DNA from: Candidatus Micrarchaeota archaeon
GTDB lineage: Archaea; Micrarchaeota; Micrarchaeia; Burarchaeales; JBDROI01
Assembly: GCA_043810245.1 (NCBI GenBank)
Contig: JBDROI010000122.1
Location: 1-30,196, forward strand
Length of the DNA stretch: 30,196 nt
Reading direction: 5' to 3'
The notes beneath the pieces were generated by a model. The model made no database searches. It saw only the letters and a program-made list of their open reading frames with translations, and had not been told where the DNA came from. Positions 1,818-30,196 of the stretch are shown here, piece after piece. Position 1 is the stretch's first letter; each line of letters begins with the position of its first letter. A program made the position numbers and the translations under genes.

Positions 1818-4565
1818 ATGGCTAAAGAAGAAAAAGGAAAAGGTGCGAAGAAAGGCGAGGAAGCGAAGAAACAGCCGAAGGCTTCGGAAGAGCCGAAGGA
1901 GAAGCCTGCATCCGTAGCGAAGGCGCCAGAACCTAAGAAACTGCCTACTCCGCAAGCGGCGCAGCCTCCTGCTCAACCAGCTGAAGCGCAAGCGCCTCCA
2001 GCCGTGCAAGCTCCGTCTACTCCTCAGGCAAAAGAGCAGAAGGAAGCGAGACCTATTCAAACTACTACTAATGGAATTCGCCCGCGCTACATTGAAGACG
2101 AGATGAAGGATTCCTATTTGGACTACGCGATGAGCGTAATCGTGGGAAGAGCGCTTCCGGATGTCCGCGACGGATTGAAACCCGTGCACAGAAGAGTTCT
2201 TTACGCAATGAGCGAGCTTGGGAATACGTCGGACAAAGCATACAAAAAATCCGCGCGTGTTGTCGGAGAAGTTTTGGGTAAATACCACCCGCACGGAGAC
2301 ACTGCAGTTTACGATACGCTTGTTAGAATGGCGCAGAATTTCTCGCTCCGCTACCCGTTGATTGACGGGCAGGGAAACTTCGGCTCAATTGACGGGGACA
2401 ACGCTGCAGCTATGCGCTATACTGAAGTGAGAATGGATAAAATTGCAGAGGAAATGCTTGCTGATATTGAGAAGAAAACTGTTGACTTTGTTCCTAACTT
2501 TGACGGCTCACTTCAGGAGCCGAGCGTGCTTCCGGCGCGTATTCCGAATCTGCTCATCAACGGCTCTTCTGGAATTGCTGTTGGAATGGCAACGAATGTT
2601 CCGCCCCACAATTTGAGCGAAATTGTTGACGGCTTGATAATGGAGATTGACAACCCCAACACCCCGCTCATTGAACTAATGAAAGCAGTTAAGGGGCCAG
2701 ACTTCCCAACGGGCGGGTATATCTGCGGAATGAAGGGAATTCTTGACGCTTACTCAACTGGGCGCGGAATAGTGAAAATGCGCGCGAAAGTGGCTTCGGA
2801 AAAAAGCGCAAAGGGGAGGGAGCGCATCATAGTAAACGAGCTTCCCTACCAGGTGAACAAAGCCGAGCTTGTGAAGCTGATTGCAGAACTCGTGAAGGAG
2901 AAGAAGGTTGAGGGAATTTCGGATTTGCGCGATGAATCGGATCGAGATGGAATGCGCATAGTTATTGAGCTTAAGAAAGATTTTACTCCGGACGTTGTGC
3001 TTAACCAGCTCTATAAGCACACGCCTCTTGAAACTACGTTTGGAGTAATCAACCTGGCGCTCGTGAACAAAGAGCCTGAAGTTCTAACGCTCAAAGAAAT
3101 TCTTGACGAGTTCGTAAAATACCGCAAGGAAATCGTTACGCGAAGGTGCAAGTGCGATTTGGAGATCGCAGAGGATAGGGCGCACATTGTCGCGGGTTTG
3201 ATGATTGCGCAGAATGATATTGATGAAGTTGTGAAAACTGTTAGAAAGGCGCAGACTCCAGTGATTGCAAAAGAACTGCTCATGAAGCTGTTGAAGCTGA
3301 GCGAGAAGCAGGCTCTTGCAATTTTGGATATGAAGCTCCAGAAGTTGACGGGCTTGGAGCGCGAGAAGCTCGAGGAAGAGAGAAAGGAGCTTGAGAAAAC
3401 GATTGAGGGGCTCAATGAGATTCTTGGAAGCGAGCCCAAACTGTTCGAAGTAATAAAGAAGGAGCTTCTTGAAGTGAAAGAGAAATACGGAGATGAACGC
3501 AGAACGCAGTTCATTGAAGACGTAGGAGATTTGGATACTGAAGACTTGATTAAGGAAGAAACTGTTGTTGTTACTGTTTCGCGCGGAGGCTATGTTAAGA
3601 GAACTCCGCTTGGAGTTTACCGCGAGCAGAGAAGAGGCGGGCGCGGAGTAATTGGAACGGATATTAAGGAAGAAGACTTCATAAAAGACGTTCTCGTTTG
3701 CTCAACGCACGACTACCTGCTCTGCTTCACGGACAAGGGAAGAATTCACTGGCTTAAAGTTTACAGAATACCGGTTGCAGACCGCTATGCTCTTGGAAAA
3801 GCAATTGTAAACCTTCTCGAGCTTCAGCAGGATGAAAAGCTCGCGGCGCTCATTCCGCTCTCGGAATTCAAGGAAACAGAGTATTTGATTATGGCAACTG
3901 AACAGGGAGTAATTAAGAGAAGCAAGCTCTTGGATTACAGCCACCCGAGAAGAGGAGGCATCATTGCAATTACGCTCCGCGAAAATGATAGGCTCATTGA
4001 AGTAAAAAGAACGAGCGGAAAGCAGGATGTAATATTCGCGAGCAAAAACGGAATGGGAATAAGATTCCATGAAGATGGAGTTAGAAGCATTGGAAGAACA
4101 GCGCAGGGAGTGCGCGGAATAAGATTGAGAAAAGGGGATGCAGTAGTTGCAATGGCAGTTGCGGAATTTGGGGAAACGATTCTCACAATTACTGAAAACG
4201 GATATGGAAAGAGAACCATGCTTGAAGACTACCGCGTGCAGGGAAGAGGAGGCATGGGGGTAATCAACATAAAGACGAGCGAGAGAAACGGAAAGGTCGT
4301 ATGCGTGCGCTCTGTCCGCGACGACGACGGAATTATTGTGATCAACAGCGCGGGCGTAATTATTCGCGTGCCAGTTATAGGGATTTCCGTAATAGGAAGA
4401 AACACGCAGGGAGTGCGCATAATGAAGCTCGAGGAAAAACAGAAAGTCGTTGCAGTTGCGCGCGTGGCAAAGGAAGATATGGAAAGCGAGGGCGAAGTTC
4501 CAGCTGAAGGAGCGGAAGAAGCAGGCAAAACTGGAGCTGAAACAGAAACACAGCCTAAAAATTAG
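1818..4565 (+). CDS. gyrA: DNA gyrase subunit A with ~85-aa low-complexity N-terminal extension and acidic C-tail
   Basis: [21 protein letters not shown], catalytic AAMRYTE, GyrA-box QRRGGRG and C-terminal beta-pinwheel repeats. Lies directly downstream of gyrB (8-nt gap, GAGGT SD-like sequence). Confidence 0.98.
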
Positions 4566-12300: not shown

Positions 12301-13554
12301 CTAAAGAGTCTCGCCAATAAGGGAGGTAGTTGTTGCCTCAGTTACGCGCACTTTCACGAACTCGCCGAGCTTTGCTTTGCCGCGTATTACCATTTGGTTG
12401 TACGCGTTCGTTCTTCCTTTGAGCGAGCCGCGCGAGCATTCTGTAACGAGCACTTCAAACTCCTTTCCAATCAGCGCGCGGTTCTTTTGTTCTGTCAACT
12501 CTCTGCAGAGCGCGCTCATTTTTACACTGCGTGCGTTGATTACGTGAGGAGAAAGCATCGTCAGCTTTGCCGCGCGCGTAAGCGGACGAGGAGTAAATTT
12601 TGAGACGTTGACTACGTTCGGCTGAAGCTTTTTTATGAGCGCAAGCGAGAGCTTGAAGTCGCGCTCGGTTTCCGTTGGGTAGCCCACTATAATATCGGTT
12701 GCAATGCTTGCTTGTGGAAAATGCACGCGGAAGCTGTTGATTACGCGGAAGAACTGCGCAACTGTGTATTTTCTTCCCATTTCTTTGAGAACGCGATTGC
12801 TCCCGCTCTGAACCGGAAGATGAATGAATTTGTAGATGTTTTTGCTTGCGAATGAATTTGCAAAGCTCTTTAGCGAGAGCGCGTGCTCTGGGTTGCACAT
12901 GCCTACGCGCAATCGGAAGTTGCCCCTGAGCGAAGCGAGCTCGCAAAGAAGGGAAATTAGACTGCTTCCAATATCCTTTCCATACGCGCCCGTGTCCTGC
13001 GCAGTAAGCTGGAATTCTTTGAAGCCGCGCTTGAGAAGCGAAGAAATTTCCTTAACTATTGCTTTTTGCTCGTAGCTTGAAAGATTCCCGCGCGCGAGCT
13101 TAGTTTGGCAGTATGCGCATGCGCCTAAACAGCCTTCTGCGATTGGAATGCGCGCAATTACTCCGGAGCGCTCCTGAGCGAAGGATTTCTTTTCGTGCTC
13201 AAGAAAAACAAGCTTTCTTCCCTGAAGAGCTCCTTCTGAAGCTTCGTAAATGTGCGCGAGCGAGAAAGGGCCCACGATGCACGCGCTTGGAATGAATTTC
13301 TCAACCAAGCGCAGGTTTGCCTGCGGAATGCATCCTGCAATAACCAGCTTTTTTCCCGAGCTTGCAAGCCTTTTGGCGTATTCGAGCGTCTTCTGCTCAG
13401 TGCTTCCCTTAACCGTGCAGGTGTTGATTATCACTACGTCCGCCTTCTCTTCATTTTCAGCTTCGCTCGCCCTGTTTTTGAGCATTATTCCGCGAATCAT
13501 CTCGGAGTCTGCCTGGTTGAGCGTGCACCCGTAGGTGCGCAAATAAAAGCGCAT
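12301..13554 (-). CDS. mtaB: Radical-SAM tRNA methylthiotransferase, MiaB family (probably archaeal MtaB/CDKAL1-like)
   Basis: UPF0004 domain (TYGCTLNQADSE, INTCTV, AGC), CxxxCxxC (CLGACAYC), TDIIVGYPTET and C-terminal TRAM domain. Start set at ATG 13554 (MRFYLRTYGC). The subfamily assignment is inference. Confidence 0.85.
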   Translation of the reverse strand: MRFYLRTYGCTLNQADSEMIRGIMLKNRASEAENEEKADVVIINTCTVKGSTEQKTLEYAKRLASSGKKLVIAGCIPQANLRLVEKFIPSACIVGPFSLAHIYEASEGALQGRKLVFLEHEKKSFAQERSGVIARIPIAEGCLGACAYCQTKLARGNLSSYEQKAIVKEISSLLKRGFKEFQLTAQDTGAYGKDIGSSLISLLCELASLRGNFRLRVGMCNPEHALSLKSFANSFASKNIYKFIHLPVQSGSNRVLKEMGRKYTVAQFFRVINSFRVHFPQASIATDIIVGYPTETERDFKLSLALIKKLQPNVVNVSKFTPRPLTRAAKLTMLSPHVINARSVKMSALCRELTEQKNRALIGKEFEVLVTECSRGSLKGRTNAYNQMVIRGKAKLGEFVKVRVTEATTTSLIGETL

Positions 13555-13667
13555 GAAGTTAATACACGAGTAAAGGATAAATTGAGTGCGCCGTGGATGG
13601 GATAAACCTATAAAAGCGTTTTCGCCCATAAACTACTCCACTAAGTACGAATTTAAGGAGGGTTTAC

Positions 13668-15502: not shown

Positions 15503-18500
15503 TTAATTTGCTTTCAAAACGACAATTTTCACGCTTTCCTCTTCAATCTCCCACTCGGTTTCAGTTCCCTTGAGCTTTGCAGACGTGGAGAGAACGAGCT
15601 CCTTTGCTTTTACTTCGCGCGCGAGCTTCTCTTCAAACGGCTTTATGCGCGCGAGGAACTCTTTTGAAGCAACTATGTTCGCGCGTATCGCGTCGCTCTC
15701 AACTAGGTTCATCTGCTTTCTTGTTTCCTGAATTCTTCTGCCGACTTCGCGCGCCATCGCTTCTCCGTAGAGCGCCTCGTTCATCTCGGTTTTGAGGAAA
15801 ACACTTCCCTCGCTGAACTTTCCTTCGGCATATCCTTCAATGAGCTTTTCCTTGAACTCAACCATGTCTTTGCTGATTTCGTGCTTTGCGCTTTCGAGCG
15901 TGATTGTAATTTTTCCCTCGCTTTTCAGGAGCCCGATTTCCTGAGAATTGAGCTTGCGGAGCGCGTCTGCAACCAGGTTTGCGTCCTTCTTGAATTTGGG
16001 CCCGAGTTTCCCTGGAAGAGGGTTGATTTCTGCGACCTTGAGCGAGTTCTCTCCAAGCTTAACTTCCTTTACGTTTGAGGTAGATTCTATGAGCGTATGG
16101 AGCTTCTTCACTGCTTCTGCAGATTCGGTTGAAGAAGTGACAACGAGCGCGCTTTCAAGAGGCCAGCGGAGTTTTACGTCTGCTTCCTGGCGCGCGTTCG
16201 CAACTGCACTCGCAACTTCGCGCGCAATAATCATCTGCTTCTCGAGAATCGGGTCTATTCGCGATTCGTGCGCTTCTGCACTCGGCCACGGGAAAAGCGA
16301 AAGTGATTCTTCTGAGTTGCTCGCGCGGAAATACATCTGGTAGAGCTCTTCGGAAATGAATGGAATTAGCGGAGAAGAAAGCTTAAGAAGCTGGAAGAGA
16401 GTCGTGTGAAGCGCCGAATGCACTGCATCTGCTTTGTCGTTTTCAGCCAATCTTTTCTTTGCGAGCTTCAAGTAAAATCTGCTTAAATCTTCTATTATGA
16501 AAGTTTTGAGAGCGCGCGTAGCAGTGTGAACGTTGTAGGTTTCGAGCGATTCGGTGCATTCCTTTGTGATAGTTCCCAAGCGCGAGAGAAGCCAAAGGTC
16601 TTCAATTGAGTAGCTTATCTTTGCGCTTTTCGCAGGCTCTTTGTAGAACCTTCCGTAGAGCAGGTAAACGTTCCACATGATTTGAAGCGCGCGGTTTGCT
16701 TCAGCGAGCTCGTCCCAGCTGAATTTTAAGTCGTCCCAAACTGCATTTCCCAAACTCCATAATCTAAAGGCGTCTGCTCCGTGCTTCTCGAGCATTTCCT
16801 CAAGAGGAACGAAGTTTCCCAAACTCTTGCTCATGGGCTCTCCTTTCTCATTTACGAAGAAGCCGTGCATGAGTAAGCTCTTGTACGGGATTTCGTTGTT
16901 TAGAACTACGCCCGAGCCGAGAAGCGAGTAGAACCAGCCTCGGATTTGGTCTTTTCCTTCAACAATGAAATCGCAAGGATACCACTGCTCTTCGCCTTTT
17001 TCAAGGGAAGCCCAAATTGCATTTCCAGAGTCAAACCAAACGTCGAGAACATCGGGAGTTCGCTTCATTTTTCCCCCGCACGCGCATTCAAACTCAACGC
17101 CGTCAATATATGGTTTGTGGAGCTCGGGAAGCTTAACTTGAAGCTCTTCCTTTGAGCCGATTACTTTGATTTTTTTGCACTTCTCGCAGACCCAAATTGG
17201 AAGCGGAATTCCCCAGTAGCGCTGGCGTGAAATGCACCAGTCGGGCGCTGAGCTCACAAAATCAGTGAACCAGACGCGCGCAAAATCCGGATTCCAAGTT
17301 GCATTGTTGATTTCCTCAAGCATGCGCTCTTTTACTTTTGTAATTGTTATGAACCACTGCTTTGTGGTTATGAAAATGAGCGGGGTCTTGCAGCGCCAGC
17401 AGTGCGGGTAGCGGTGGGTTATTTTTCCAGCGTTTAGGAGAAGCCCTTTCTCTTTCAAATCTTCAATGATGAGCGGGTTTGCCTCGCGCACATTCATGCC
17501 CGCGTATTTGCCCCCTTCTTGCCCGTAGTTTCCGCGCGTGTCAACCGGGCAGAAGATGTCTAAATTATTCTGCTTTCCTACGATGAAGTCAGAGGGGCCA
17601 TGGCCAGGAGCGCAGTGAACCAACCCGCTTCCCTCGTCAAGAGTTACAAAACGGTCGGTCATTATTATTTTGTGGAGTTTTTTCTGGTAGGGAATGTGCT
17701 CAACGAGCGGGTGCTCGTATTCAAGATCTTTGAGCTTTATTCCGGAAAATTCTTCGAGAACTACGAAGCTCTTCCCCAAATCCAAGCAGATTGCACTCAC
17801 GGCTTCGAGTCTGTCTTTTGCAAGAATCCATGTTTCCTCGTCAACTTTCACGCGCACGTACTTGAACATTGGGTGAGCCATTACTGCGATGTTTGAAACG
17901 AGCGTCCATGGAGTGGTTGTCCAGATTACTAGGTACTCGTTGGGGTTGCGCATGCTCTTGAATTTTACATAAATAGAAGGGTCTTCCTTGTCGTCGTACT
18001 CGAGCTCGTAGTTTGCAATTGTCGTTTCGCAGCGCGGGCAGAATGGAAGAACGTAGACTCCTTCTTCAAGAAGGCCTTTTTCGTGCGCCTTCTTTATGGT
18101 TTTCCATGAAGACTCGATGAACTCGTCTTTGTAGGTAACATAAGGCTTTTCGAACTGCATCCAAACTCCGAGTTTCGAGAACTGCTCGGACATGATGTTT
18201 ATGTATTGGGTTGCAAACTTCTTGCAGCGCGTTATGAATTCTTCTATTCCAACTTTTTCAATCTCCTTTTTTGAAGTGAGGTTCATTTCTTTTTCGACTT
18301 TTACTTCAATCGGAAGACCGTGGGTGTCGTAGCCTGGTTGCGCGCGCAGGTTGAAGCCTCGAGCTCGCTTGTATCGGCACACCGTGTCTTTTATGCATTT
18401 GTTCCAAGCTGTTCCTGGGTGAATTTGGCCGGTTGCGTATGGCGGCCCGTCGCAGAAGTAGAACTTCTTTCCTTTCTTGTTCTTTTCTTCTAGTTTTTTG

Positions 18501-18562
18501 AAAATCGCACTGCTTTCCCAGAAGGCGCGTGTTTTTTTCTCGTTTTCCTGCGCATCGTACAT
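15503..18562 (-). CDS. ileS: Isoleucyl-tRNA synthetase (archaeal/type 2)
   Basis: DGPPYATGQIHPGT, GYDTHGLPIE, WTTTPWTL, GSGLVHCAPGHG, DWCISRQRYWG, EGKDQIRGWF and PMSKSLGN. Start set at ATG 18562 (MYDAQENE). Confidence 0.97.
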   Translation of the reverse strand: MYDAQENEKKTRAFWESSAIFKKLEEKNKKGKKFYFCDGPPYATGQIHPGTAWNKCIKDTVCRYKRARGFNLRAQPGYDTHGLPIEVKVEKEMNLTSKKEIEKVGIEEFITRCKKFATQYINIMSEQFSKLGVWMQFEKPYVTYKDEFIESSWKTIKKAHEKGLLEEGVYVLPFCPRCETTIANYELEYDDKEDPSIYVKFKSMRNPNEYLVIWTTTPWTLVSNIAVMAHPMFKYVRVKVDEETWILAKDRLEAVSAICLDLGKSFVVLEEFSGIKLKDLEYEHPLVEHIPYQKKLHKIIMTDRFVTLDEGSGLVHCAPGHGPSDFIVGKQNNLDIFCPVDTRGNYGQEGGKYAGMNVREANPLIIEDLKEKGLLLNAGKITHRYPHCWRCKTPLIFITTKQWFITITKVKERMLEEINNATWNPDFARVWFTDFVSSAPDWCISRQRYWGIPLPIWVCEKCKKIKVIGSKEELQVKLPELHKPYIDGVEFECACGGKMKRTPDVLDVWFDSGNAIWASLEKGEEQWYPCDFIVEGKDQIRGWFYSLLGSGVVLNNEIPYKSLLMHGFFVNEKGEPMSKSLGNFVPLEEMLEKHGADAFRLWSLGNAVWDDLKFSWDELAEANRALQIMWNVYLLYGRFYKEPAKSAKISYSIEDLWLLSRLGTITKECTESLETYNVHTATRALKTFIIEDLSRFYLKLAKKRLAENDKADAVHSALHTTLFQLLKLSSPLIPFISEELYQMYFRASNSEESLSLFPWPSAEAHESRIDPILEKQMIIAREVASAVANARQEADVKLRWPLESALVVTSSTESAEAVKKLHTLIESTSNVKEVKLGENSLKVAEINPLPGKLGPKFKKDANLVADALRKLNSQEIGLLKSEGKITITLESAKHEISKDMVEFKEKLIEGYAEGKFSEGSVFLKTEMNEALYGEAMAREVGRRIQETRKQMNLVESDAIRANIVASKEFLARIKPFEEKLAREVKAKELVLSTSAKLKGTETEWEIEEESVKIVVLKAN

Positions 18563-18566
18563 AGAG

Positions 18567-18971
18567 TTACCCCGAAGTTGCTTCTGCTGTTTTTTCGTCC
18601 TTCTCTTCCCTGCCCGCATAGCTCCTCACAGAGTATAGAACAGGGTAGATGAAGAATGCAAGCGCTATTAGAAACGAGGAGGAAGTTGAAATTGGCGCGT
18701 TCCAGTTGATGACTTTTATTATGAATGCGCACGCGAGCGGAATTGCTCCCAAAACAAGTGCGCGCACTGGAGTCAGCGTAAGCCCGAATTCCTCTGTTGC
18801 AAGCGCAAAGAGAAGAGGCGAGAGAGCGCTCGCCGAGAAGAAAAGCACGTAAATCGTTGGGAAGAAGCTTTGAACTCCATAGATGTTGAAGAACCATAGG
18901 AGAACTAAAAGTAGGAGCGTCGCGTTAAGCGTTAGCAATGCAGAAACTCTTGACTCTTGCTCTTCTTCCAT
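18567..18971 (-). CDS. Hypothetical membrane protein (about 4 TM helices), likely co-transcribed with ileS
   Basis: Four hydrophobic segments; stop 4 nt before the ileS ATG. Start ATG 18971 is preferred over the longer ORF. Confidence 0.7.
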   Translation of the reverse strand: MEEEQESRVSALLTLNATLLLLVLLWFFNIYGVQSFFPTIYVLFFSASALSPLLFALATEEFGLTLTPVRALVLGAIPLACAFIIKVINWNAPISTSSSFLIALAFFIYPVLYSVRSYAGREEKDEKTAEATSG

Positions 18972-22354: not shown

Positions 22355-23413
22355 TCAGCCGTAGTAGCTGTCGTCGCTGTAGGAAGGCTGAGAGTTGTAT
22401 CCGCTGCTCTGCGCCGCGTTCATCTCCGCCTGCACTTCCTCAAGCTCTTTCTGCGTCGTGGTTAATGAAGCAGACACAAACCTGCCGTCGGTCTTAAGCG
22501 CGAGCTTTGAGACCAATGCTTCAGTTGCAGTGCCTTCTTCAAGCGTGCCTTTTGCCAGCTTTAATATGCCGTCAAGCGCATCGCCAATCTTGGTTGCAGA
22601 GTTCTCGTTGCTGCAGTAGAGAGATATTTTTACGTCCATGTTCGAGCCGCTCTTTGAGTATGAAAGAGCTACTTCGTCAACGTTTGCAAACAGTTTGCTG
22701 TCGATTGGAGAACCTGCTGAGCTTGGAGAGCTCTTCAAAGAAGCTTTTGCATCCGCTGGAACGGTTATTACTGCAACGATCCAGCCGCTCGTGTCGACTT
22801 TTCCAGAGTATTTGCCGATGAAGTCTGCGTCAATTGCTTTTGCTTTTCCGCTCTCGACGTCAATTACTTCTTCAACAGTTTCCATGGTCCCTATTATGAT
22901 GTAGGAGTCGCCGATAATTCCGACTGCACTGTCAGTGCCTCCGCTTTCTGAGTAGTAGATCGTTTGTCCATTGTAAGTTTTTGACTCGGTGTTGTCCTGC
23001 TCTGTGATTGCTTCCTTAATTTTTGCACTGTCGAATGTTCCTTGGAGGATTACTCCAGCCATTGGAGTGTTTGCAGAGTTTGCAGAGCCATAGGCGCTCG
23101 CAGAGTATAGACTCATGTACGCAGACATATCCCCAAAGACTGCTATTTTCTCAATCTTTGTCATATCTATTCCTGTTTCTTTCTCCATTTCTTGCAGACT
23201 TGTTTCAAAGTCGTCTACACTGCTCTGCGGCATTGACTCCCAGATGTCTTTGTCATCCATTATCTGCTTCCAGTCAATGACAGCAACGCTGTCTGCTTTT
23301 GCCGGTATTAAAGCAGTTATATCCTTCTCGCCTCCGATTGGAGGAATTACGCATCCCGCTAGGAGAAGCGCCACAATAAAGAGCGCAAATACTCCCAAAA
23401 GTTCTTTCTTCAT
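22355..23413 (-). CDS. Putative lipoprotein (DUF3352-like alpha/beta domain, by resemblance only)
   Basis: MKKELLGVFALFIVALLLAGC signal/lipobox and GGGTGA SD. Start set at 23413 (23419 is an alternative). Confidence 0.8.
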   Translation of the reverse strand: MKKELLGVFALFIVALLLAGCVIPPIGGEKDITALIPAKADSVAVIDWKQIMDDKDIWESMPQSSVDDFETSLQEMEKETGIDMTKIEKIAVFGDMSAYMSLYSASAYGSANSANTPMAGVILQGTFDSAKIKEAITEQDNTESKTYNGQTIYYSESGGTDSAVGIIGDSYIIIGTMETVEEVIDVESGKAKAIDADFIGKYSGKVDTSGWIVAVITVPADAKASLKSSPSSAGSPIDSKLFANVDEVALSYSKSGSNMDVKISLYCSNENSATKIGDALDGILKLAKGTLEEGTATEALVSKLALKTDGRFVSASLTTTQKELEEVQAEMNAAQSSGYNSQPSYSDDSYYG

Positions 23414-23475
23414 GAACATCACCCGTGCGTATTTCGGCTCATAAGTATTTAAAAGTATTGCCCGAGGAAGTTTGT

Positions 23476-24015
23476 ATGATTTCCATGAAAAAAGACGCAG
23501 TCGGCTTGTTCGTCGGGCGATTTCAACCGCTTCATAATGGGCACCTCGAGGCAATGAAATGGGCGCTCGGGAAATGCTCGCGCCTAATTATACTAGTAGG
23601 AAGCTCGCAGAAATGCTATGAGCCCGAGAACCCGTTCACAGTAGGAGAAAGAATTGAGATGGTTCACCGCGCGCTGAGCGCCGAGAAGCTCGCAGAACGC
23701 TGCCTTATTCTTTCTATTCCCGACATAGGGAACAACGCTTTGTGGGTTGCGCATGTTGACTCGCTTGTTCCGCGCTATGATATAGTTTTCTCGAACAACG
23801 CGCTCACTGTGAAGCTGTTCCGCGAGAAAGGAAAAGAAGTCATGGGAATTCCATTTTTCAAGCGCGAGTCGCACGATGGAACAAAAGTAAGAAAGGCGAT
23901 GCTTGTTGGAAAAAAGGAATGGGAGAAATTGGTGCCAAAAGAAGTTGCTGATTTTGCAAGGGAAATCAACGCGCTTGGAAGAATTAAGGAAGTTGCGAAT
24001 GGAGATAAAGTTTAG
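23476..24015 (+). CDS. nadM: Nicotinamide-nucleotide adenylyltransferase
   Basis: GRFQPLHNGH, GSSQ...ENPFTVGERIEM, W..HV, FSNN and GT.VR. Start is 23476 or 23485. Confidence 0.93.
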   Translation: MISMKKDAVGLFVGRFQPLHNGHLEAMKWALGKCSRLIILVGSSQKCYEPENPFTVGERIEMVHRALSAEKLAERCLILSIPDIGNNALWVAHVDSLVPRYDIVFSNNALTVKLFREKGKEVMGIPFFKRESHDGTKVRKAMLVGKKEWEKLVPKEVADFAREINALGRIKEVANGDKV

Positions 24016-24037: not shown

Positions 24038-24400
24038 TTAGGAGTATGTAATGCAAGTGTATGGAGGGCCTATTTTGACAACTATGTCATAGAGCCTAAT
24101 CCACTTAGCGTTCTCTTTAAGCGGAAGAGAGTGCAGCTGCTCTTCAAGGTAAGGAAGCGCTTCGCGGCCTATTTTTACGAGCTTTTTTTCCGCGCGCGCG
24201 GATTCTTTTATGTTCTTGCTTGTCAGTGCATTTACCAGCCAGCTTAGACGCCTTCTTTTGAGTGCAGAGCGAGCGAGCTTTGGCGAATCCAGAAGCGCGC
24301 GTATGAATGGATGCGCCTCTCTTGAGGGAATTGCAGAAGGTCTGCTGGGAAAACGCCTGTTGAAACCAGGTTTTTGGAGAAGTTGGGAGTTGGTTGTCAT
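24038..24400 (-). CDS. Array member 1: conserved leader plus HEAT-like soluble module
   Basis: Starts MTTNSQLLQKPGFNRRFPSRPSAIPSREAHPF; ATGA overlap with the upstream ORF. Confidence 0.85.
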   Translation of the reverse strand: MTTNSQLLQKPGFNRRFPSRPSAIPSREAHPFIRALLDSPKLARSALKRRRLSWLVNALTSKNIKESARAEKKLVKIGREALPYLEEQLHSLPLKENAKWIRLYDIVVKIGPPYTCITYS

Positions 24401-24825
24401 TCTTCAACGCCTTGTTGTGTTTCTTCGGAATGGTTTATTTCAGTTATTATTATGTAGAGCTGCTGGTTTCGCAGGGATTGCGAGGTGGAGAACGCAGGCC
24501 AGCTTTTTTCGTATGCTTTTTGCAGAAGAGGAAGAATTTTTGCAGATTTGAATAGAGAGCAGTCATCATAGTAGCATCCTAGAATTTTTTGTTTTGCTTT
24601 ATAGCTTTTTTCTAAATTTTTGCTTCCGAGTTTGCGGATCTGCGAGTTTACGCGACTTCTCGCGCGCATGTTTATTATTGCGCTTTCAATTCGCTTGGGA
24701 ATTCTGGTTATTTCAAAAAACACATCTAGGAGCGGATGCCGTTCTTTGAACGAAAGCCTAGAAGGTTTGCTGGATAGATGAAGCCGAACATCTGATTTTT
24801 TGGGGAGTTGCGAGTTAGATGTCAT
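24397..24825 (-). CDS. Array member 2: diverged leader plus HEAT-like soluble module
   Basis: Starts MTSNSQLPKKSDVRLHLSSKPSRLSFKERHPL; TAATG overlap and GGTGA SD. Confidence 0.85.
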   Translation of the reverse strand: MTSNSQLPKKSDVRLHLSSKPSRLSFKERHPLLDVFFEITRIPKRIESAIINMRARSRVNSQIRKLGSKNLEKSYKAKQKILGCYYDDCSLFKSAKILPLLQKAYEKSWPAFSTSQSLRNQQLYIIITEINHSEETQQGVEE

Positions 24826-25562
24826 TATTTCACCTTTCGCGGAGAAGAATGTGGAGCGTCTGCCCGAATTGACATTGTTCTTCCTATTACATATGCACAG
24901 CCCATAATTAGCCCTGCAAGAGCGCCAATTGTGGAGAAAGCAAAAACTGGGAGTAAGCCGAATACTATAGAAAGCTGGGAGATGACGAAAAGTTTGCTTG
25001 GGAAGCCGAATACTTCGCGGTCTGAAGGCATTTGGGGAGCTGTCTGTTTTAGGGAGTAAAGAGTTCCCTTGGAGGAGTTGAACTGCTCCAGTTTTATAAC
25101 GTGCATCTCCCGTATCATGGGGCAGTTTTCCAATCTGCCTGCTAGATCGTATACTAGTTGCTTTTTCATATTGTTTGTTAGTAGAACGTTGAATGATTGG
25201 GAAGCGGGCTTCTTTCCAATGAGAAAAAGAGGAGGAGGCTGAAGCTTTATTGAATAGACTGCTGTTCTTGGATCAAATTTTGCTTTTGCTTCTTCAGAAG
25301 TAACTACAACTGAATTTTTGCTGAAGTAGTTCTTGAAGTTCAGTGAAACTTTGGAGGTTAGCGGAGTTGCTTGCCCGATAAGAAAGACTATAAGGGAGCC
25401 GAGCAACGCTCCTTTAAGCACGCGTTTTGATGCAAGCTTAACTTCTGGCTTTTTTAGTTTGAAGAGAAAGGGGTGCGCCTCTCTGTAGGAGATTCTAGAA
25501 GGTCGTTTAGGGAAGAGCATCCTAGCACCGGGCCTTTGCAGGAGTTGTGAGTTAACTGCCAT
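24825..25562 (-). CDS. Array member 3: leader plus TM-loop domain-TM module
   Basis: Starts MAVNSQLLQRPGARMLFPKRPSRISYREAHPF; two hydrophobic regions flank a ~130-aa domain. Confidence 0.85.
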   Translation of the reverse strand: MAVNSQLLQRPGARMLFPKRPSRISYREAHPFLFKLKKPEVKLASKRVLKGALLGSLIVFLIGQATPLTSKVSLNFKNYFSKNSVVVTSEEAKAKFDPRTAVYSIKLQPPPLFLIGKKPASQSFNVLLTNNMKKQLVYDLAGRLENCPMIREMHVIKLEQFNSSKGTLYSLKQTAPQMPSDREVFGFPSKLFVISQLSIVFGLLPVFAFSTIGALAGLIMGCAYVIGRTMSIRADAPHSSPRKVK

Positions 25563-25566
25563 TATT

Positions 25567-26637
25567 TCACCGCGCTTTTCTATAGGCTATATTGAAAAAC
25601 ACTTCTTCTATTCCCCAGCCCATTGCTCTTTCAGGAGAGCTCGTTATGCTGATTTTCCAGCCGAGTTTCTTGTGCTTTGCTTTTAGGAATGGAATTACAG
25701 TTTCTGGGTGTGCTAAACCTAGGTCGGTTAGTGCTTCTTTACTATTTTTGCATTCTGTTTTGTCTATGCTTGCAAGCATTTTAACCAGCTTGCTTAAGTG
25801 GCGCTTTCTTTTTCTTTCGCTGGCTTTGTCCCAATCTAAGTTGGTTGAAACTCCAAAGAGCGCGCGTCCTGCCAACTTTATTCCTTTCCATGCAAGACCA
25901 GGTGCATTTTGTATTCCTATAAATGCTAGAATAATAGCTCCAAAAGCCATAATGAGTCCAAGAATGAGTATGCCGGCTGTAAGAATAAAAACAGGTATTG
26001 CAGTAGCGATGCTAGAAAGTGAAAGCACGCCGCTGGAGAAGCCAGTAAGTGTACGAGTAGTCGGCGTAGTGGAAAGGCCTTCCTTTTTTAATATGCAAAT
26101 CGTTTCCTGCTTCTTGAGTTCGGATTCTGCTTCTTTGAGTTTCATAAAATTAGAGGTTAAAGCCAGGTTGCTTTGGTGTAGTACTTCACGCATTTCATAA
26201 ACTGCATTATGCTCCTCTGCGTCTAGAATAATAATGTTGACAGTCTGCTTCGGAAGCTCTTTGAAAAGAAGAAGTGGAGTCGGCTCTACGTCCATCCTGA
26301 ATATGCTTGCATCCGGACCAAATTTTGCTTTTGCTTGGCTCTGAGTTATTTGAAGTGTACGTTTGTTTAGGTATACCTTGAAGTTTTGAGAAGCAAGGTA
26401 GCTGAACAGCGAACTCTGACTTATGAGAGCCAAAACGATTGCAGAGATGAGAGTTATGCGAAGCGGTATATTAGAGTCTCTTTCGCGCAGTTTTTCAAGC
26501 GTTTGCTTGGGGTTGCGCACGGCTGTTATGATGGAGTTTGTAAGAGGATATTTCTCGCGCATGGGAATTCTGGAAGGAGTTTTAGGGAACTGCAGCTGAA
26601 AAGCTGGTTTTTGGAGAATTTGTGAAGTTATTGACAT
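25567..26637 (-). CDS. Array member 4: leader plus TM-loop domain-TM module plus HEAT-like module
   Basis: Starts MSITSQILQKPAFQLQFPKTPSRIPMREKYPL. The middle aligns with member 3 and the C-terminus with member 1. Confidence 0.85.
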   Translation of the reverse strand: MSITSQILQKPAFQLQFPKTPSRIPMREKYPLTNSIITAVRNPKQTLEKLRERDSNIPLRITLISAIVLALISQSSLFSYLASQNFKVYLNKRTLQITQSQAKAKFGPDASIFRMDVEPTPLLLFKELPKQTVNIIILDAEEHNAVYEMREVLHQSNLALTSNFMKLKEAESELKKQETICILKKEGLSTTPTTRTLTGFSSGVLSLSSIATAIPVFILTAGILILGLIMAFGAIILAFIGIQNAPGLAWKGIKLAGRALFGVSTNLDWDKASERKRKRHLSKLVKMLASIDKTECKNSKEALTDLGLAHPETVIPFLKAKHKKLGWKISITSSPERAMGWGIEEVFFNIAYRKAR

Positions 26638-27158
26638 TTGTTTGCCCCCAAGATGCTTTGCTCATTTCTTTTTATTCGGTGCTTCACTGCTGTGAGAAGG
26701 TGATAAAGACCGTTTAAGCCCCAGGATAAAATTGTAAGTGCTCCGGATGGAGAGAAAAACGTGCATGTTAGCACGACTGCATAGGCGCCTGCAGAAGACA
26801 CCCAGTGCAGAGAAGATAGAGAATCAAGCAGGTTATAAACATCAGGTATGAGCGAAACTGATGAACGGAGAGTAAAGGAAAGAACTGGAAGAGTTGCTGC
26901 AATATAGAACGCATTTGTATAATTTTGGAATTTTCTCTGCTCTTTTTCATCCATGCTCGCTTCTGCAATCACTCGAGTTCTAAGCTTCTTCTTATGTTTG
27001 GGTTTGCCTGACTCTGAAGTAAACGCGCAGAAGATGCGGGTATTTTCCATAAGAGCATAAGCAAATGGATGCATCTCTCTGAAAGGAAGGGCGGAGGGAC
27101 GCTTAGGGAAATGCTGGCGGAAGCCGGGTTTTTGCAAAAGTTGTGAGTTAACTGCCAT
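26628..27158 (-). CDS. Array member 5: leader plus C-terminal TM segments
   Basis: Starts MAVNSQLLQKPGFRQHFPKRPSALPFREMHPF. Confidence 0.85.
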   Translation of the reverse strand: MAVNSQLLQKPGFRQHFPKRPSALPFREMHPFAYALMENTRIFCAFTSESGKPKHKKKLRTRVIAEASMDEKEQRKFQNYTNAFYIAATLPVLSFTLRSSVSLIPDVYNLLDSLSSLHWVSSAGAYAVVLTCTFFSPSGALTILSWGLNGLYHLLTAVKHRIKRNEQSILGANKCQ

Positions 27159-27161
27159 CTT

Positions 27162-27311
27162 TTACCGCCCGTCTGGAAATTGCTTCCAATGCGCTGTTGG
27201 TTGAGTAAACAATTCGCTTTCATTTTTTCCATCGTGAGATTTTCCTTTCATTGCTTGCTCTAGGAAAATCCTTGAAGAGAAGGTTCTTTGAGGCGCTAGG
27301 ATTGGGCTCAT
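27162..27311 (-). CDS. 49-aa ORF filling the only apparent gap in the array, missing from the ORF track
   Basis: Hand translation: MSPILAPQRTFSSRIFLEQAMKGKSHDGKNESELFTQPTAHWKQFPDGR*. ATGA overlap with the 27308 stop, GGTGA SD, and ends 3 nt before the next ATG. Confidence 0.55.
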   Translation of the reverse strand: MSPILAPQRTFSSRIFLEQAMKGKSHDGKNESELFTQPTAHWKQFPDGR

Positions 27312-28051
27312 TCGTTCACCGTTTCAGTGCTCTCGTTTGGAGCTAATTTTTTTGCTATGAACTTGGAAATGGGCGAGATAACACGGGGCATGAGGAAAAT
27401 GCCTAGCAAGAAAGTTATAATCCATATAGCTGAGCAGATGCTGCGTGCTTTGATGACGGCTGCGTTAGGATAGAGAAAATGCACTTTGTTAGGTATGCGG
27501 CCTTTAACAGTATATTTTGTTGTGGATTTGTTTGGGGCGTGTGTTGGAGCTATAAATGGAGCAGGTATTCCATCCGTAATTATTACATTTGGAAAAATAT
27601 GTTGCATTACTGGGGGTATTTGACTTTGTTTACTGTAGGTATATTCTACTGCAAAGGATTCGGGAGTATTTTCTGGAACAGGAAAGGAAAGAGGCATTTC
27701 ATTAAAATAAGCTGTGAAAACTCTTGTATTTGGAGGGCATACGACCTTCTTGTTTTTATAGCGAAGTTGGATTGTGTTGTTGGCTACTTGAACGCTGAAT
27801 GTTTTTTGGGTAATTGTTTCATAAATATAGTTCATGATCGGAATGGATGTTAGCATAGGAAGGGCGCAGAAGGCTATTGCTAAAGAATATGTGAGGAGTG
27901 TTGAGCGCATTGTTTTTGGCTTATTAAGCAAAAGATTGCAGAAGTAGTATCTGAACGGACCTCTTTCCCTTAACGGAATTCTAGAAGGACGCCTAGGAAA
28001 AACAGGGCGGAAAAAAGGCCGTTGCAAGATTTGCGAACTAACCGGGGTCAT
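27308..28051 (-). CDS. Array member 6: leader plus TM-loop domain-TM module
   Basis: Starts MTPVSSQILQRPFFRPVFPRRPSRIPLRERGPF; same topology as members 3 and 4. Confidence 0.85.
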   Translation of the reverse strand: MTPVSSQILQRPFFRPVFPRRPSRIPLRERGPFRYYFCNLLLNKPKTMRSTLLTYSLAIAFCALPMLTSIPIMNYIYETITQKTFSVQVANNTIQLRYKNKKVVCPPNTRVFTAYFNEMPLSFPVPENTPESFAVEYTYSKQSQIPPVMQHIFPNVIITDGIPAPFIAPTHAPNKSTTKYTVKGRIPNKVHFLYPNAAVIKARSICSAIWIITFLLGIFLMPRVISPISKFIAKKLAPNESTETVNE

Positions 28052-28470
28052 GGTCTCACTACTCCTTCTTTTGATATGCTTGTTATTGCTGCTATCAGAG
28101 CCTCAATTGTTTTTGGATCTCTTTCTTTTGGCAAGCGCTGGAGAAGCATGCGCGGAATTTCGTAGGTGTCGAAGTAGCTTAAGCCAACTGCAGCTGCAAA
28201 GCGGATTCCTGGATCGTCGTCTAAAAGCAACTCAAAGAGGCGTGGAATTGCCTCTTGAACTTTATTTCTCCCCAGCTGCATGCATGCCTCGCACCGCTGT
28301 ATTGTACTGTATCTTGAATTTAATGTGAGAAGGTTGCGGGTTGTTTCTTTTTCATTTGGAGCAAAACGCCTTTCCGTAAGGGATCTGCCTGCAAAAGAGA
28401 ATTGTGGTTTGTTGGAGCTTCCAGTAGAGAAGAGGGGGAAAATTACCGCTTGCATATTTACTGCTGCCAT
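28048..28470 (-). CDS. HEAT-repeat (PBS-lyase-like) protein inside the array
   Basis: RCEACMQLG...AIPRLFELLLDDDPGIRFAAAVGL...LLQRLPKERDPKTIEALIAAI is a clear HEAT pattern. It lacks the full leader. Confidence 0.85.
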   Translation of the reverse strand: MAAVNMQAVIFPLFSTGSSNKPQFSFAGRSLTERRFAPNEKETTRNLLTLNSRYSTIQRCEACMQLGRNKVQEAIPRLFELLLDDDPGIRFAAAVGLSYFDTYEIPRMLLQRLPKERDPKTIEALIAAITSISKEGVVRP

Positions 28471-28471
28471 T

Positions 28472-28981
28472 TTAGTCTCCTTTAGTGTAAATTTCAGTTG
28501 ACTCTCCGTTGTACGGGAGATAGTTTGCTATGCTTGAGAATGATTTGAGGCCAAGGACTCGCTGAAGCATTTGTATGTCGTCTGTTTTCTTTAGGAAGTG
28601 AAGCGCAAATGAGTAGCGGAGCGTGCGCGAAGTGATGTTTGAGAAGCCCGCTTCTTCAGAATATTTCTTTATTATGTGCTGAACTCTGCGCGGAGTAAGC
28701 GAACCTCCATAGCCTTTGAAGAGATGCCTGCGCTTTGAAGTGAATGAGCACAGTTTCTCAAGGAGCGGAGAGGAAAGAGAGAGTGTGCGCGGAGTTGACG
28801 GAATTGTTAGCGTGGATTCCTGGAAGTTGATGTCCTTTGTTTTTAGGGAGGTAAGTTCGCCCACTGTTAATCCGCATGAAGAAAGAAGCTCGAGTATGAG
28901 CTGGTCGCGAGAGTTTGAGGAAGCTCGCTCTACAATTAGGGAAATCTGCTCTTGGGTGAGTTTGCTGTTAGGCGTCTTCAT
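28472..28981 (-). CDS. Tyrosine-recombinase (XerC/D-like) catalytic-domain-only protein with a degenerate active site
   Basis: RDQLILELLSSCGLTVGEL..L...DI, TSRTLRYSFALH and LQRVLGLKSFSSIANY align with Box I/Box II. There is no N-terminal core-binding domain. Confidence 0.85.
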   Translation of the reverse strand: MKTPNSKLTQEQISLIVERASSNSRDQLILELLSSCGLTVGELTSLKTKDINFQESTLTIPSTPRTLSLSSPLLEKLCSFTSKRRHLFKGYGGSLTPRRVQHIIKKYSEEAGFSNITSRTLRYSFALHFLKKTDDIQMLQRVLGLKSFSSIANYLPYNGESTEIYTKGD

Positions 28982-29384
28982 TTTTCTTCCTCTTTTTTAT
29001 GAAATGATTTGCAAGAACGTAAGTTGAAAGATAACCAGTTAGAAGTGTGAAAGCTACGTAAACTATAGCGACAGTGAGGCCCGCTAATTTGCCTATAGAA
29101 TCCGCTAATGTACCAGTTGCTACTGAAAAAAAGACGGCAAAAGGAATCGCACGGAAACCTAGCGAAACATTGCTGGGAAGTTCTATGTTTTCTTGGCGAG
29201 ATTCAAAAGAATAAAGTTTTGATACGCATGCACACGTAAGCAGTGCCTCATAGCGGAATTTTTTATCAAATTGCAGAAGCTTGTATTTGAAGGGGTTTTT
29301 TTCTCTTAGTGGGATTAAAGATGGAGTTTTAGAGAAGTTAAGGCGGAAGCCCGGTTTTTGCAGGAGTTGTGTTGCTATTGTCAT
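28968..29384 (-). CDS. Array member 7: leader plus C-terminal TM hairpin
   Basis: Starts MTIATQLLQKPGFRLNFSKTPSLIPLREKNPF. Confidence 0.85.
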   Translation of the reverse strand: MTIATQLLQKPGFRLNFSKTPSLIPLREKNPFKYKLLQFDKKFRYEALLTCACVSKLYSFESRQENIELPSNVSLGFRAIPFAVFFSVATGTLADSIGKLAGLTVAIVYVAFTLLTGYLSTYVLANHFIKKRKKNEDA

Positions 29385-29881
29385 ATTTCTTCCTCGTTTG
29401 AAGTTTTGAGCTTCTTTTCAAGCCAAGTGAAAAAAACAAATGGTTTAAACGAAATGGATGTCATGTCTTCCATTGCTAAGATTATGAGCGCGGCCACGCT
29501 GGGCAGACAAGATAAAATCAAATAACGCAAGGAAAGCGTGGAGTAAATAGAAACTGCTAAGGGTATGAAGGGCATTGAAGAAATGCATTTTAGCAGAAAT
29601 TTTTGAATGGAATTTATGAGATTAACAAATTCGAAACGGTTTACTATTTGATCATTAGTCATTCCGTTCTGCTTGACTTTTAGGGCTTGGGTTATTTCAG
29701 TTATTTCTTCCTTGTCAAGATGACAAGTACGGAGCGCAAAGTTTCCTGAGAATATTACTGCTTCATCCATTAGTTTGGAAACCAACGGATGCCTCTCTTT
29801 GAATGGAAGTTTAGTTGGGCTGCTAGGAAATATGATCTGAGAACCGGGTCGTTGAAGTAGTTGCGTGTTTATTCTCATCAT
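29381..29881 (-). CDS. Array member 8: leader plus C-terminal TM hairpin
   Basis: Starts (M)MRINTQLLQRPGSQIIFPSSPTKLPFKERHPL. Confidence 0.85.
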   Translation of the reverse strand: MMRINTQLLQRPGSQIIFPSSPTKLPFKERHPLVSKLMDEAVIFSGNFALRTCHLDKEEITEITQALKVKQNGMTNDQIVNRFEFVNLINSIQKFLLKCISSMPFIPLAVSIYSTLSLRYLILSCLPSVAALIILAMEDMTSISFKPFVFFTWLEKKLKTSNEEEI

Positions 29882-30196
29882 AAATCACCGTGATTTTTTT
29901 TAGAAAATACTCCAAGTTCAGTTAAACCTACACCTAGCATAAGCCCTCCGAAGATTGAAGTGATGCTAATAACGGCATAAATAGAGAAGAGGAAGAATTT
30001 TCCCAACAGGGTGGAAGTTTTGTGAACCTTGCTGAAGTCTGTATTGCTATTGAGAACTCCAAACGATTCGTTTTTTGTTTCCTTAAGAGATTCTTCTAAA
30101 GTTATAGTGCGGTTTGGGAGAAAAACTTCATACTTTTTGATTGCTGAAGCGAGGTTTGCTATGGTTTCTTCGTTTTCTTTATCTGAAACGATTAGA
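29878..30196 (-). CDS. 3' part of a further array gene (5' end outside the window) with C-terminal TM segments
   Basis: Open frame from 30195: LIVSDKENEETIANLASAIKKYEVF...LLGKFFLFSIYAVISITSIFGGLMLGVGLTELGVFSKKNHGDL*. Its stop overlaps the next ATG (ATGA). Confidence 0.7.
   Translation of the reverse strand, partial: LIVSDKENEETIANLASAIKKYEVFLPNRTITLEESLKETKNESFGVLNSNTDFSKVHKTSTLLGKFFLFSIYAVISITSIFGGLMLGVGLTELGVFSKKNHGDL

Follow-up and report, generated by a model that had tools for sequence, protein, structure and literature searches.

Contig JBDROI010000122.1 of the Candidatus Micrarchaeota archaeon assembly GCA_043810245.1 raises the question of why most products of one compact gene array, which vary in size and layout, should begin with nearly the same peptide of about 32 residues. 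The window analysed here is the whole contig (C122; 30,196 nucleotides), and the array lies at positions 24038–30196 on its minus strand. Array genes are labelled by the upper coordinate of their minus-strand open reading frames (ORFs), and C15, C45 and C59 denote the other contigs of this genome (G000; 1.09 Mb in 131 contigs, 88% complete) that carry the same N-terminal peptide, referred to below as the leader or tail. A DPANN-type archaeon is a plausible source, because genes for gyrase, aminoacyl-tRNA synthetases and the small subunit of an archaeal RFC lie in the window and because the public runs containing the sequence are groundwater metagenomes only; two of these groundwater runs hold just scattered contigs of 180–300 nt at a depth of ~1–2. 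Our preferred answer, tentative and with a chance of being right that falls a little short of even, is that the leader proteins form a paralog network restricted to this lineage, in which a disordered tail on the cytoplasmic side would dock with a common partner.

The leader, its copies and its constraint

The array comprises ten complete ORFs and one 5′-truncated ORF, one complete ORF fewer than the eleven counted in an earlier reading made from the letters alone (the sequence-only reading). Eight of them (24400, 24825, 25562, 26637, 27158, 28051, 29384 and 29881) begin with M-x-x-N/T-S/T-Q-L/I-L-Q-K/R-P-G-F-x3-F-P-x2-P-S-x-I/L-P-x-R/K-E-x-H-P-F/L, a stretch of ~32 residues that the ORF listing and alignment both recovered. 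A column-by-column check found Q6, P21, E28 and P31 invariant across the eight and length differences limited to 28051, which is one residue longer, and 29881, which has its Met doubled; P31 is encoded by all four proline codons (CCA, CCG, CCC and CCT), as is P11, which is proline in seven of the eight. On all these points the sequence-only reading holds. The leader of 24825 is degenerate and lacks P11, G12, F13, P18 and P25.

A hidden Markov model (HMM) of the leader was run against 20,437 six-frame ORFs of the genome, a search the sequence-only reading had proposed, and it added four copies, giving twelve in total. The eight window copies and a ninth on C15 (5982–6698) scored at E 1e-15 to 1e-24, and three further copies, two on C59 (1003–1734, C59a; 2567–3277, C59b) and one on C45 (13172–14242), at E 1e-4 to 4e-6, with the next ORF at E 0.02. 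These matches are far beyond chance, and every one of the twelve sits at the exact N-terminus of its protein and, the two length differences just named aside, is indel-free. Across all twelve only P21, E28 and P31 are invariant, within a core of [KR]-P-S-x-[ILV]-P-[FYW]-R-E-x-x-P-[FL], and Ser or Thr directly follows P21 in 10 of them. The leader is basic and proline-rich, abundant in basic and aromatic residues, and Glu28 is its sole acidic residue. Elsewhere in the genome, a 62-residue ORF (C7 750–935, plus strand; HMM E 0.02) contains M-T-Q-L-P-Q-K-P-G-I-R-F-L-F, which resembles leader residues 1–14, and may be the remnant of a decayed copy.

Synonymous (pS) and nonsynonymous (pN) differences in the leader were measured over nine close copies, and the comparison by region over the seven members with a full shared architecture. 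In the nine close copies, leader synonymous sites are saturated (pS 0.71) with pN at 0.30, and the leader DNA shows 60% nucleotide identity overall and 43% at third codon positions. In the seven members, the leader has a pN of 0.44 and 36% amino-acid identity, against 0.59–0.63 and 16–19% in the linker, the first transmembrane segment (TM1), the loop and the second transmembrane segment (TM2); pS is saturated in every region, with leader values of 0.71–0.80 over both comparisons. Since the synonymous sites of the leader are saturated while its pN is low, the constraint lies at the peptide level and not on a DNA site, as the sequence-only reading had argued from the proline codons; leader pN stands at 0.30–0.44 and that of the bodies at ~0.6. 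By these comparisons the leader is the most constrained part of the proteins. It follows that the duplications are old and that gene conversion has not operated.

A DNA-level origin of the repeated element, as a recombination site, by gene conversion or as a shufflon served by the recombinase embedded in the array, was rejected: the DNA repeats in the array region are the coding copies alone, these are just 60–72% identical with synonymous sites saturated, and no flanking inverted repeats were found. The recombinase (28472–28981, minus strand, 169 residues) is a XerA-type tyrosine-recombinase catalytic domain alone (Pfam 5.8e-18; NCBIfam XerA 1e-28, profile positions 95–257 of 263) and is without four aligned catalytic positions. 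It was aligned to 4a8e and 5hxy; compared with P. abyssi XerA (4a8e), its box I Arg is replaced by Thr (GLTVGE), its Lys hairpin is shortened (IPSTPR), HxxR reads as RTLR and LGH as LGL, and the Tyr is retained. The protein is probably inactive.

Relatives of the leader were sought widely. Word-indexed searches of 5.8 billion proteins with one-protein and seven-member-profile queries returned this genome's own genes only, and an exhaustive hmmsearch of a 12-leader profile against 1.84 billion cluster representatives returned only this genome's proteins. The one additional match met in the searches, to a tandem-repeat protein (P0011), was judged spurious. No leader outside this genome was found in six-frame searches of 60 relatives and 400 same-class genomes, and a scan of JGI metagenomes, a scan of genome collections and exact-sequence look-ups yielded nothing but its own genes. 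A profile search of the PDB gave no match, and Pfam, NCBIfam and PADLOC no model overlapping the leader, so that the earlier impression of a motif without a named family stands for these four resources. The ESM Atlas gave no match above noise. Three leader proteins that were checked form singleton clusters, each from one contig. Among the sequences searched, the leader is confined to this genome.

Predicted topology and the paralogous bodies

Seven copies follow one plan: 25562 (24825–25562, 245 residues), 26637 (25567–26637, 356 residues), 28051 (27308–28051, 247 residues), all on the minus strand, and those of C15, C59a, C59b and C45. In this plan a tail of ~32 residues and a short linker are followed by TM1 at about residues 50–75, a loop of ~120–145 residues (~120 in 25562) with a weak E-x-K-A-K-F-x-P-x-T-x-V-F motif, TM2 at about residues 200–225 and a basic end. 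Two members carry an extra cytoplasmic C-terminal module, HEAT-like in 26637 and coiled-coil-like in C45. The segment before TM1 holds 8–12 K+R against 1–4 D+E (net +6 to +10) in all seven. Basic flanks of transmembrane (TM) segments stay cytoplasmic under the positive-inside rule, and because both this segment and the C-terminal end are basic, both termini would lie in the cytoplasm and the variable loop outside. The tail of the seven copies is thus predicted to be cytoplasmic.

The other bodies differ. Both 24400 (24038–24400, 120 residues) and 24825 (24397–24825, 142 residues) are TM-free, with the tail leading into HEAT-like helices, and their bodies weakly resemble each other (E 0.028). 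In 27158 (26628–27158, 176 residues), which has the best-conserved tail (85.6 bits), a basic linker precedes a weakly hydrophobic C-terminal half without a TM-grade segment. The small proteins 29384 (28968–29384, 138 residues) and 29881 (29381–29881, 166 residues, with the doubled Met) have TM segments solely at the C-terminus, the former after a linker of ~45 residues as a TM pair followed by a KKRKKNE end, the latter as a single TM after ~70 soluble residues. All five lie on the minus strand. The diversity of bodies beyond the leader that had been described from the sequence is therefore real, spanning soluble HEAT-like, two-TM and small C-terminal-TM proteins. AlphaFold2 models, with a predicted local distance difference test (pLDDT) score of 48 from a seven-member alignment and, from a nine-member alignment, a pLDDT of 65 and a predicted template-modelling score (pTM) of 0.28, agree in showing residues 1–25 as coil and a helix from R27-E28 onward.

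These proteins could also be read as an ordinary paralog family without a shared partner, in which the N-terminus serves each protein separately, for instance through juxtamembrane packing or through binding of acidic lipids by its Lys/Arg and Phe/Tyr/Trp residues; we consider this unlikely, yet a contender to be taken seriously. Compared without their tails, the bodies of 25562 and 26637 match at E 7e-16 and those of C59a and C59b at E 2e-5, with the other pairs mostly at noise, and a body-only leave-one-out profile recovers 25562, 26637, C15 and C59b (E 1e-7 to 1e-3) and does not recover 28051, C59a and C45. No tail-less family member was found in the genome with the body profile. The sequence-only reading had acknowledged that proteins alignable over their entire length would point to simple paralogs with a slower-evolving N-terminus; since seven have one architecture over their full length and homology beyond the leader can still be recognised in four of these, the family is indeed of this kind to a considerable extent. 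The small members may moreover be internal-deletion derivatives (25562 and 29384 bodies, E 0.07), and the wealth of basic and aromatic residues in the tail would suit a role at the membrane. However, the identical type of tail also occurs on HEAT-like proteins that have no TM and on others whose TM layouts differ, and it is predicted as coil; invariant Pro, Glu and Pro at fixed spacing, kept through saturated synonymous divergence, fit specific recognition better than generic lipid binding. The family is thus in part an old paralog family, and in part the tail has been reused as a module on different bodies.

HEAT, MoxR and VWA proteins as candidate partners

Under the docking reading preferred here, at least 12 paralogous genes would make up a network specific to this lineage, with the array as its principal cluster, in a DPANN-type groundwater archaeon with a genome of ~1.1 Mb. 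The N-terminal ~32 residues would form a disordered, basic, proline-rich cytoplasmic tail and serve for docking as a short linear motif; most members would be built as inner tail, TM, fast-evolving outer loop, TM and inner end, and a few would present the tail on soluble HEAT-like modules. One cytoplasmic partner would probably recognise all members through the tail.

Candidates for this partner come from the genes beside the leader copies. On C15 the order is a 421-residue AAA_5/CbbQ_C protein of the MoxR class, a 936-residue CobT-like VWA protein (VWA/CobT_C), a 590-residue HEAT protein and the leader gene, all overlapping or abutting, with the leader gene overlapping the stop of the HEAT gene and the contig ending 38 nt beyond the leader gene. 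By eye, the VWA protein retains the whole MIDAS (a metal-ion-dependent adhesion site; DxSxS, T and D) and the ATPase its Walker motifs. On C59 two leader copies flank a 274-residue HEAT gene, and the array itself encodes a HEAT-repeat protein (28048–28470, minus strand, 140 residues; Pfam HEAT_2 6.8e-9) with a decayed, tail-like N-terminus; this protein is homologous to the C59 HEAT protein (E 4e-5). HEAT-repeat proteins therefore occur at three of the four loci; for the fourth, a HEAT-like gene is found on an alternative contig, C106 (2326 nt). There, the C45 leader copy is flanked by dnaK and by the first codons of dnaJ, whereas C106 is identical to the end of dnaK over 46 nt and then encodes a 367-residue HEAT-like soluble protein before dnaJ. 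The slot (C45 13172–14256) thus holds a different gene in each contig, the dnaJ starts being 92% identical, and looks like strain variants or an assembly bubble.

The genome holds ~15 HEAT_2 proteins in 1.09 Mb, in small tandem clusters. Such clusters were seen on C103 (791–2282 and 15360–18227), C71 (4725–7459), C22, C104 and C30, several with related tails, and three HEAT proteins start with M-[AT]-T-[ST]-T-L-[TA]-[RK]-P. Eleven HEAT-protein N-termini, including those of 28048–28470, C15 and C59, look collinear with the leader over a common pattern of M-small-x-x-x-L-x-K/R ... L-x-S ... F-x-x-K ... P-[LIF]-x-E. In hhalign the leader and HEAT-tail profiles match over full length (P 4e-4), and reciprocal ranking among ~1,100 N-termini gave Mann–Whitney p values of 3e-7 and 1.5e-5. 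Real sequences exceeded their own shuffles by z ~11 and ~3.5, so that composition alone is ruled out. On these profile comparisons, an N-terminal tail seems to mark the network of HEAT proteins in this lineage, with the sharp leader as its best-conserved branch.

A genome of the same order (G012) has three loci (L053, L054 and L055) that pair a MoxR-type AAA+ with a CobT-like VWA protein; HEAT genes directly follow the pair in L053 (a run of six) and L055 (one), and in L054 they are on the strand of the VWA gene, a few kb away from it. The HEAT proteins of these loci start straight at the repeat, without a tail, and since G012 nevertheless has the core, the MoxR/VWA/HEAT core is older than the tail. 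No description of MoxR-VWA-HEAT operons was found in the literature searched.

Two partners would be plausible on this basis. The first would be the HEAT-repeat solenoids at the loci, with the basic tail lying in a HEAT/ARM groove. In importin-alpha, the IBB is a basic, extended N-terminal tail bound by the HEAT repeats of importin-beta. The likeness lies in a basic tail combined with a HEAT/ARM solenoid, and in some tail-bearers containing repeats themselves; as the IBB is eukaryotic and without sequence relation to the leader, the analogy could be mechanistic only. The second candidate would be the VWA subunit on C15, where Glu28 could complete the MIDAS metal site, and with VWA as the partner the MoxR ATPase could remodel or assemble the membrane proteins. 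This follows what is described for MoxR/VWA pairs such as NorQ-NorD, CbbQ-CbbO, RavA-ViaA and CobS-CobT, in which the target that the pair remodels contributes an acidic residue as sixth ligand of the MIDAS (PMC9976466), and for vWA domains, which are proposed to pick up a peptide on behalf of the MoxR ATPase (PMC7159879). The C15 genes resemble these pairs in combining AAA_5/CbbQ_C with a CobT-like VWA that has a full MIDAS, and the leader offers one invariant Glu, but no known MoxR/VWA pair serves a tagged membrane-protein family, and the link to the tail comes from a single operon.

The closest documented comparison is with the EAD-coupled MoxR-vWA ternary systems (Kaur, Burroughs, Iyer, Aravind 2020, PMC7159879), which likewise join a MoxR AAA+/vWA core to a third component. 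In those systems up to 22 paralogs per genome bear a small terminal tag on varied bodies, the tags are lineage-specific, and some tagged genes stand beside the core while others are dispersed, as is the case here; a MoxR AAA+/vWA core in one operon with a tagged protein is found at C15, that is, for one of the 12 copies. EADs are, however, folded, mostly helical domains with a copy on a core subunit for homotypic pairing, whereas the leader is a proline-rich stretch of 32 residues predicted as coil. The leader HMM has no match in the C15 AAA+ or VWA proteins; the N-terminus of the 590-residue C15 HEAT protein ranks second among 1,103 N-termini for the leader, though at E 0.72. The EAD systems also have VMAP, iSTAND, FtsH or beta-propeller third components and enzymatic effectors, in contrast to HEAT proteins and non-enzymatic membrane bodies in a unicellular archaeal host. 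By analogy, the leader family may work like EAD coupling without being a member of it.

A stronger version of the docking reading would have a MoxR-AAA+/VWA/HEAT machine reading the Glu-centred tail as a substrate code in order to assemble or remodel fast-evolving surface membrane proteins, with the looser tails marking HEAT adaptors; we regard this fuller scheme as rather improbable. Several points weigh against the docking reading more generally. The topology is based on hydropathy and the positive-inside rule, and confidence in the structure models is low (pLDDT 48 and 65). Just one of the 12 copies stands in a MoxR-VWA operon, and we infer both the docking role of the tail and the identity of its binder, the latter from linkage and established mechanisms. 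Adjacency to HEAT genes weighs less because such genes are common in this genome. The similarity between the leader and the HEAT tails fails most single leave-one-out tests and is significant collectively only, for which reason the HEAT N-termini are not counted as members. Finally, the family occurs in a single metagenome-assembled genome (MAG).

Export, regulation and the surrounding genes

The sequence-only reading had proposed that the leader addresses a panel of proteins for delivery to a host or to a cell-contact structure, and that a dedicated chaperone, protease or translocon reads it. Its exclusion of the ordinary signal classes was correct. No TM-grade segment lies within residues 1–45 of any copy on the Kyte–Doolittle scale, and the tail is without Cys, contrary to Sec, lipoprotein and class III signals; adjacent Arg-Arg occurs in three of the 12 tails and not at one aligned column, the nearest hydrophobic segment lies at least 15 residues past the tail, and 24400, 24825 and 27158 have no TM-grade segment at all, contrary to Tat. 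A leader peptide of ribosomally synthesized and post-translationally modified peptides (RiPPs) does not fit either, the bodies having 90–320 residues and mostly TM segments, with no RiPP enzyme detected by Pfam and NCBIfam in the array or at the other loci; the radical-SAM gene of the window (12301–13629) is of MiaB type (UPF0004 and TRAM domains) and lies 10 kb from the array. Encapsulin (PF04454) had no match in the genome, although at 88% completeness an absence is not provable in an incomplete MAG. With all of these classes, Tat, Sec, lipoprotein and class III signals, RiPP leaders and encapsulin cargo peptides, the leader shares its terminal position and a length of ~20–40 residues.

Export or host delivery itself appears improbable. 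The layout of a conserved tag on variable bodies would suit it, as would the small genome (1.09 Mb) of a groundwater archaeon that is probably symbiotic, outer loops that evolve fast, and leader loci that fall in assembly-fragile regions with an alternative gene at one, as expected for surface or interaction genes. Short N-terminal elements on many divergent paralogs are known from host-dependent organisms, as in the phytoplasma SVM signal family and Plasmodium PEXEL; those elements are or follow hydrophobic Sec signals that lead to export, whereas the leader lacks a hydrophobic core and should, by prediction, remain cytoplasmic. In seven of the 12 copies the stretch ahead of TM1 carries a net charge of +6 to +10, and the tail is accordingly predicted to sit, uncleaved, on the cytoplasmic side of proteins anchored by two TM segments; two copies are TM-free. 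No peptidase, translocon, secretion ATPase or channel is linked to the family loci, the sole linked ATPase being the cytoplasmic MoxR-type chaperone ATPase on C15. Searches of Pfam, NCBIfam and PADLOC down to E ≤ 1 detected no family of toxins, immunity proteins or secretion components, which also disfavours polymorphic toxins and effectors. In addition, the neighbouring product of 22355–23554 carries an ordinary lipobox-type signal, and ordinary export signals are therefore in use.

The least probable reading, quite unlikely in our view, makes the tail a regulatory tag that sets the abundance of all members, either a degron or quality-control mark (e.g., for proteasome/PAN) or a phospho-regulated Pro-Ser element, for which the exposed disordered tail, the Ser/Thr after P21 in most copies and the one copy between dnaK and dnaJ, a hint at proteostasis, could be cited, but the family loci have neither a protease nor a kinase linked to them, conservation here extends over 32 collinear residues while degrons are as a rule short and allow changes, and the dnaK position is a single locus at which the alternative contig has a different gene.

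The remaining features of the array and contig can be given briefly. The array ORFs are tightly packed, with overlaps of 1–14 nt or gaps of at most 4 nt, the sole exception being a 149-nt gap at 27159–27307. The array is a mild low-GC island, with a GC content of 0.425 against 0.469 in the remaining contig and 0.462 genome-wide (5th percentile of 1-kb windows). At the contig end, the 5′-truncated ORF (29878–30195, minus strand) has a C-terminal TM and a body weakly similar to that of the C15 copy (E 0.005), and is probably a further family member whose tail lies beyond the contig. At 28968–28996 and 29381–29399, the conserved basic-then-acidic C-terminal ends of upstream genes (KKRKKNE and NEEE among them) are encoded by GAGGAAGAAA-[AT]-ATGA, a stretch that includes both GAGGA, which is Shine-Dalgarno-like, and the start codon with which the following gene overlaps, and because it holds both, the C-terminal conservation may partly reflect a translational-coupling constraint.

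Three of the four leader-family loci touch contig ends, and looking past 30196 no overlaps to join on were found at the contig ends of C122, C15 and C45. Exact overlaps at the following ends suggest joins of C15-left with C103-left (28 nt), C59-left with C97-right (20 nt) and C122-left with C23-right (48 nt). The first would add two HEAT genes directly upstream of the MoxR-VWA-HEAT-leader operon, and between these two C103 genes lies a tail-bearing ORF of 186 residues. Further into the window, the isoleucyl-tRNA synthetase (15503–18619, minus strand) has 34–40% identity to bacterial sequences (Patescibacteria and Bacteroidota) and to one uncultured archaeon sequence, and merely 26–28% to other archaeal isoleucyl-tRNA synthetases; being closer to the bacterial than to the other archaeal enzymes, it looks like a bacterial-type gene gained by transfer.

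About 1% of the genes of this genome (12 of ~1,100) carry the strictly conserved tail, which is predicted to be cytoplasmic, and perhaps 2% do so when the looser HEAT tails are included. In DPANN-type archaea, much of a tiny genome consists of unannotated membrane proteins that are thought to mediate host contact, and a peptide of 32 residues with three invariant positions provides a concrete handle for finding its partner, which could reveal how such cells organise their surface proteins. If the tail is the slow-evolving part of a paralog family, the result would be a well-described orphan family and no more. If the tail docks onto MoxR/VWA proteins, it would supply a defined recognition peptide for chaperones whose clients are mostly unknown, and if it serves as a substrate code, a dedicated client-selection system would stand behind the cell-surface repertoire of an episymbiotic archaeon.

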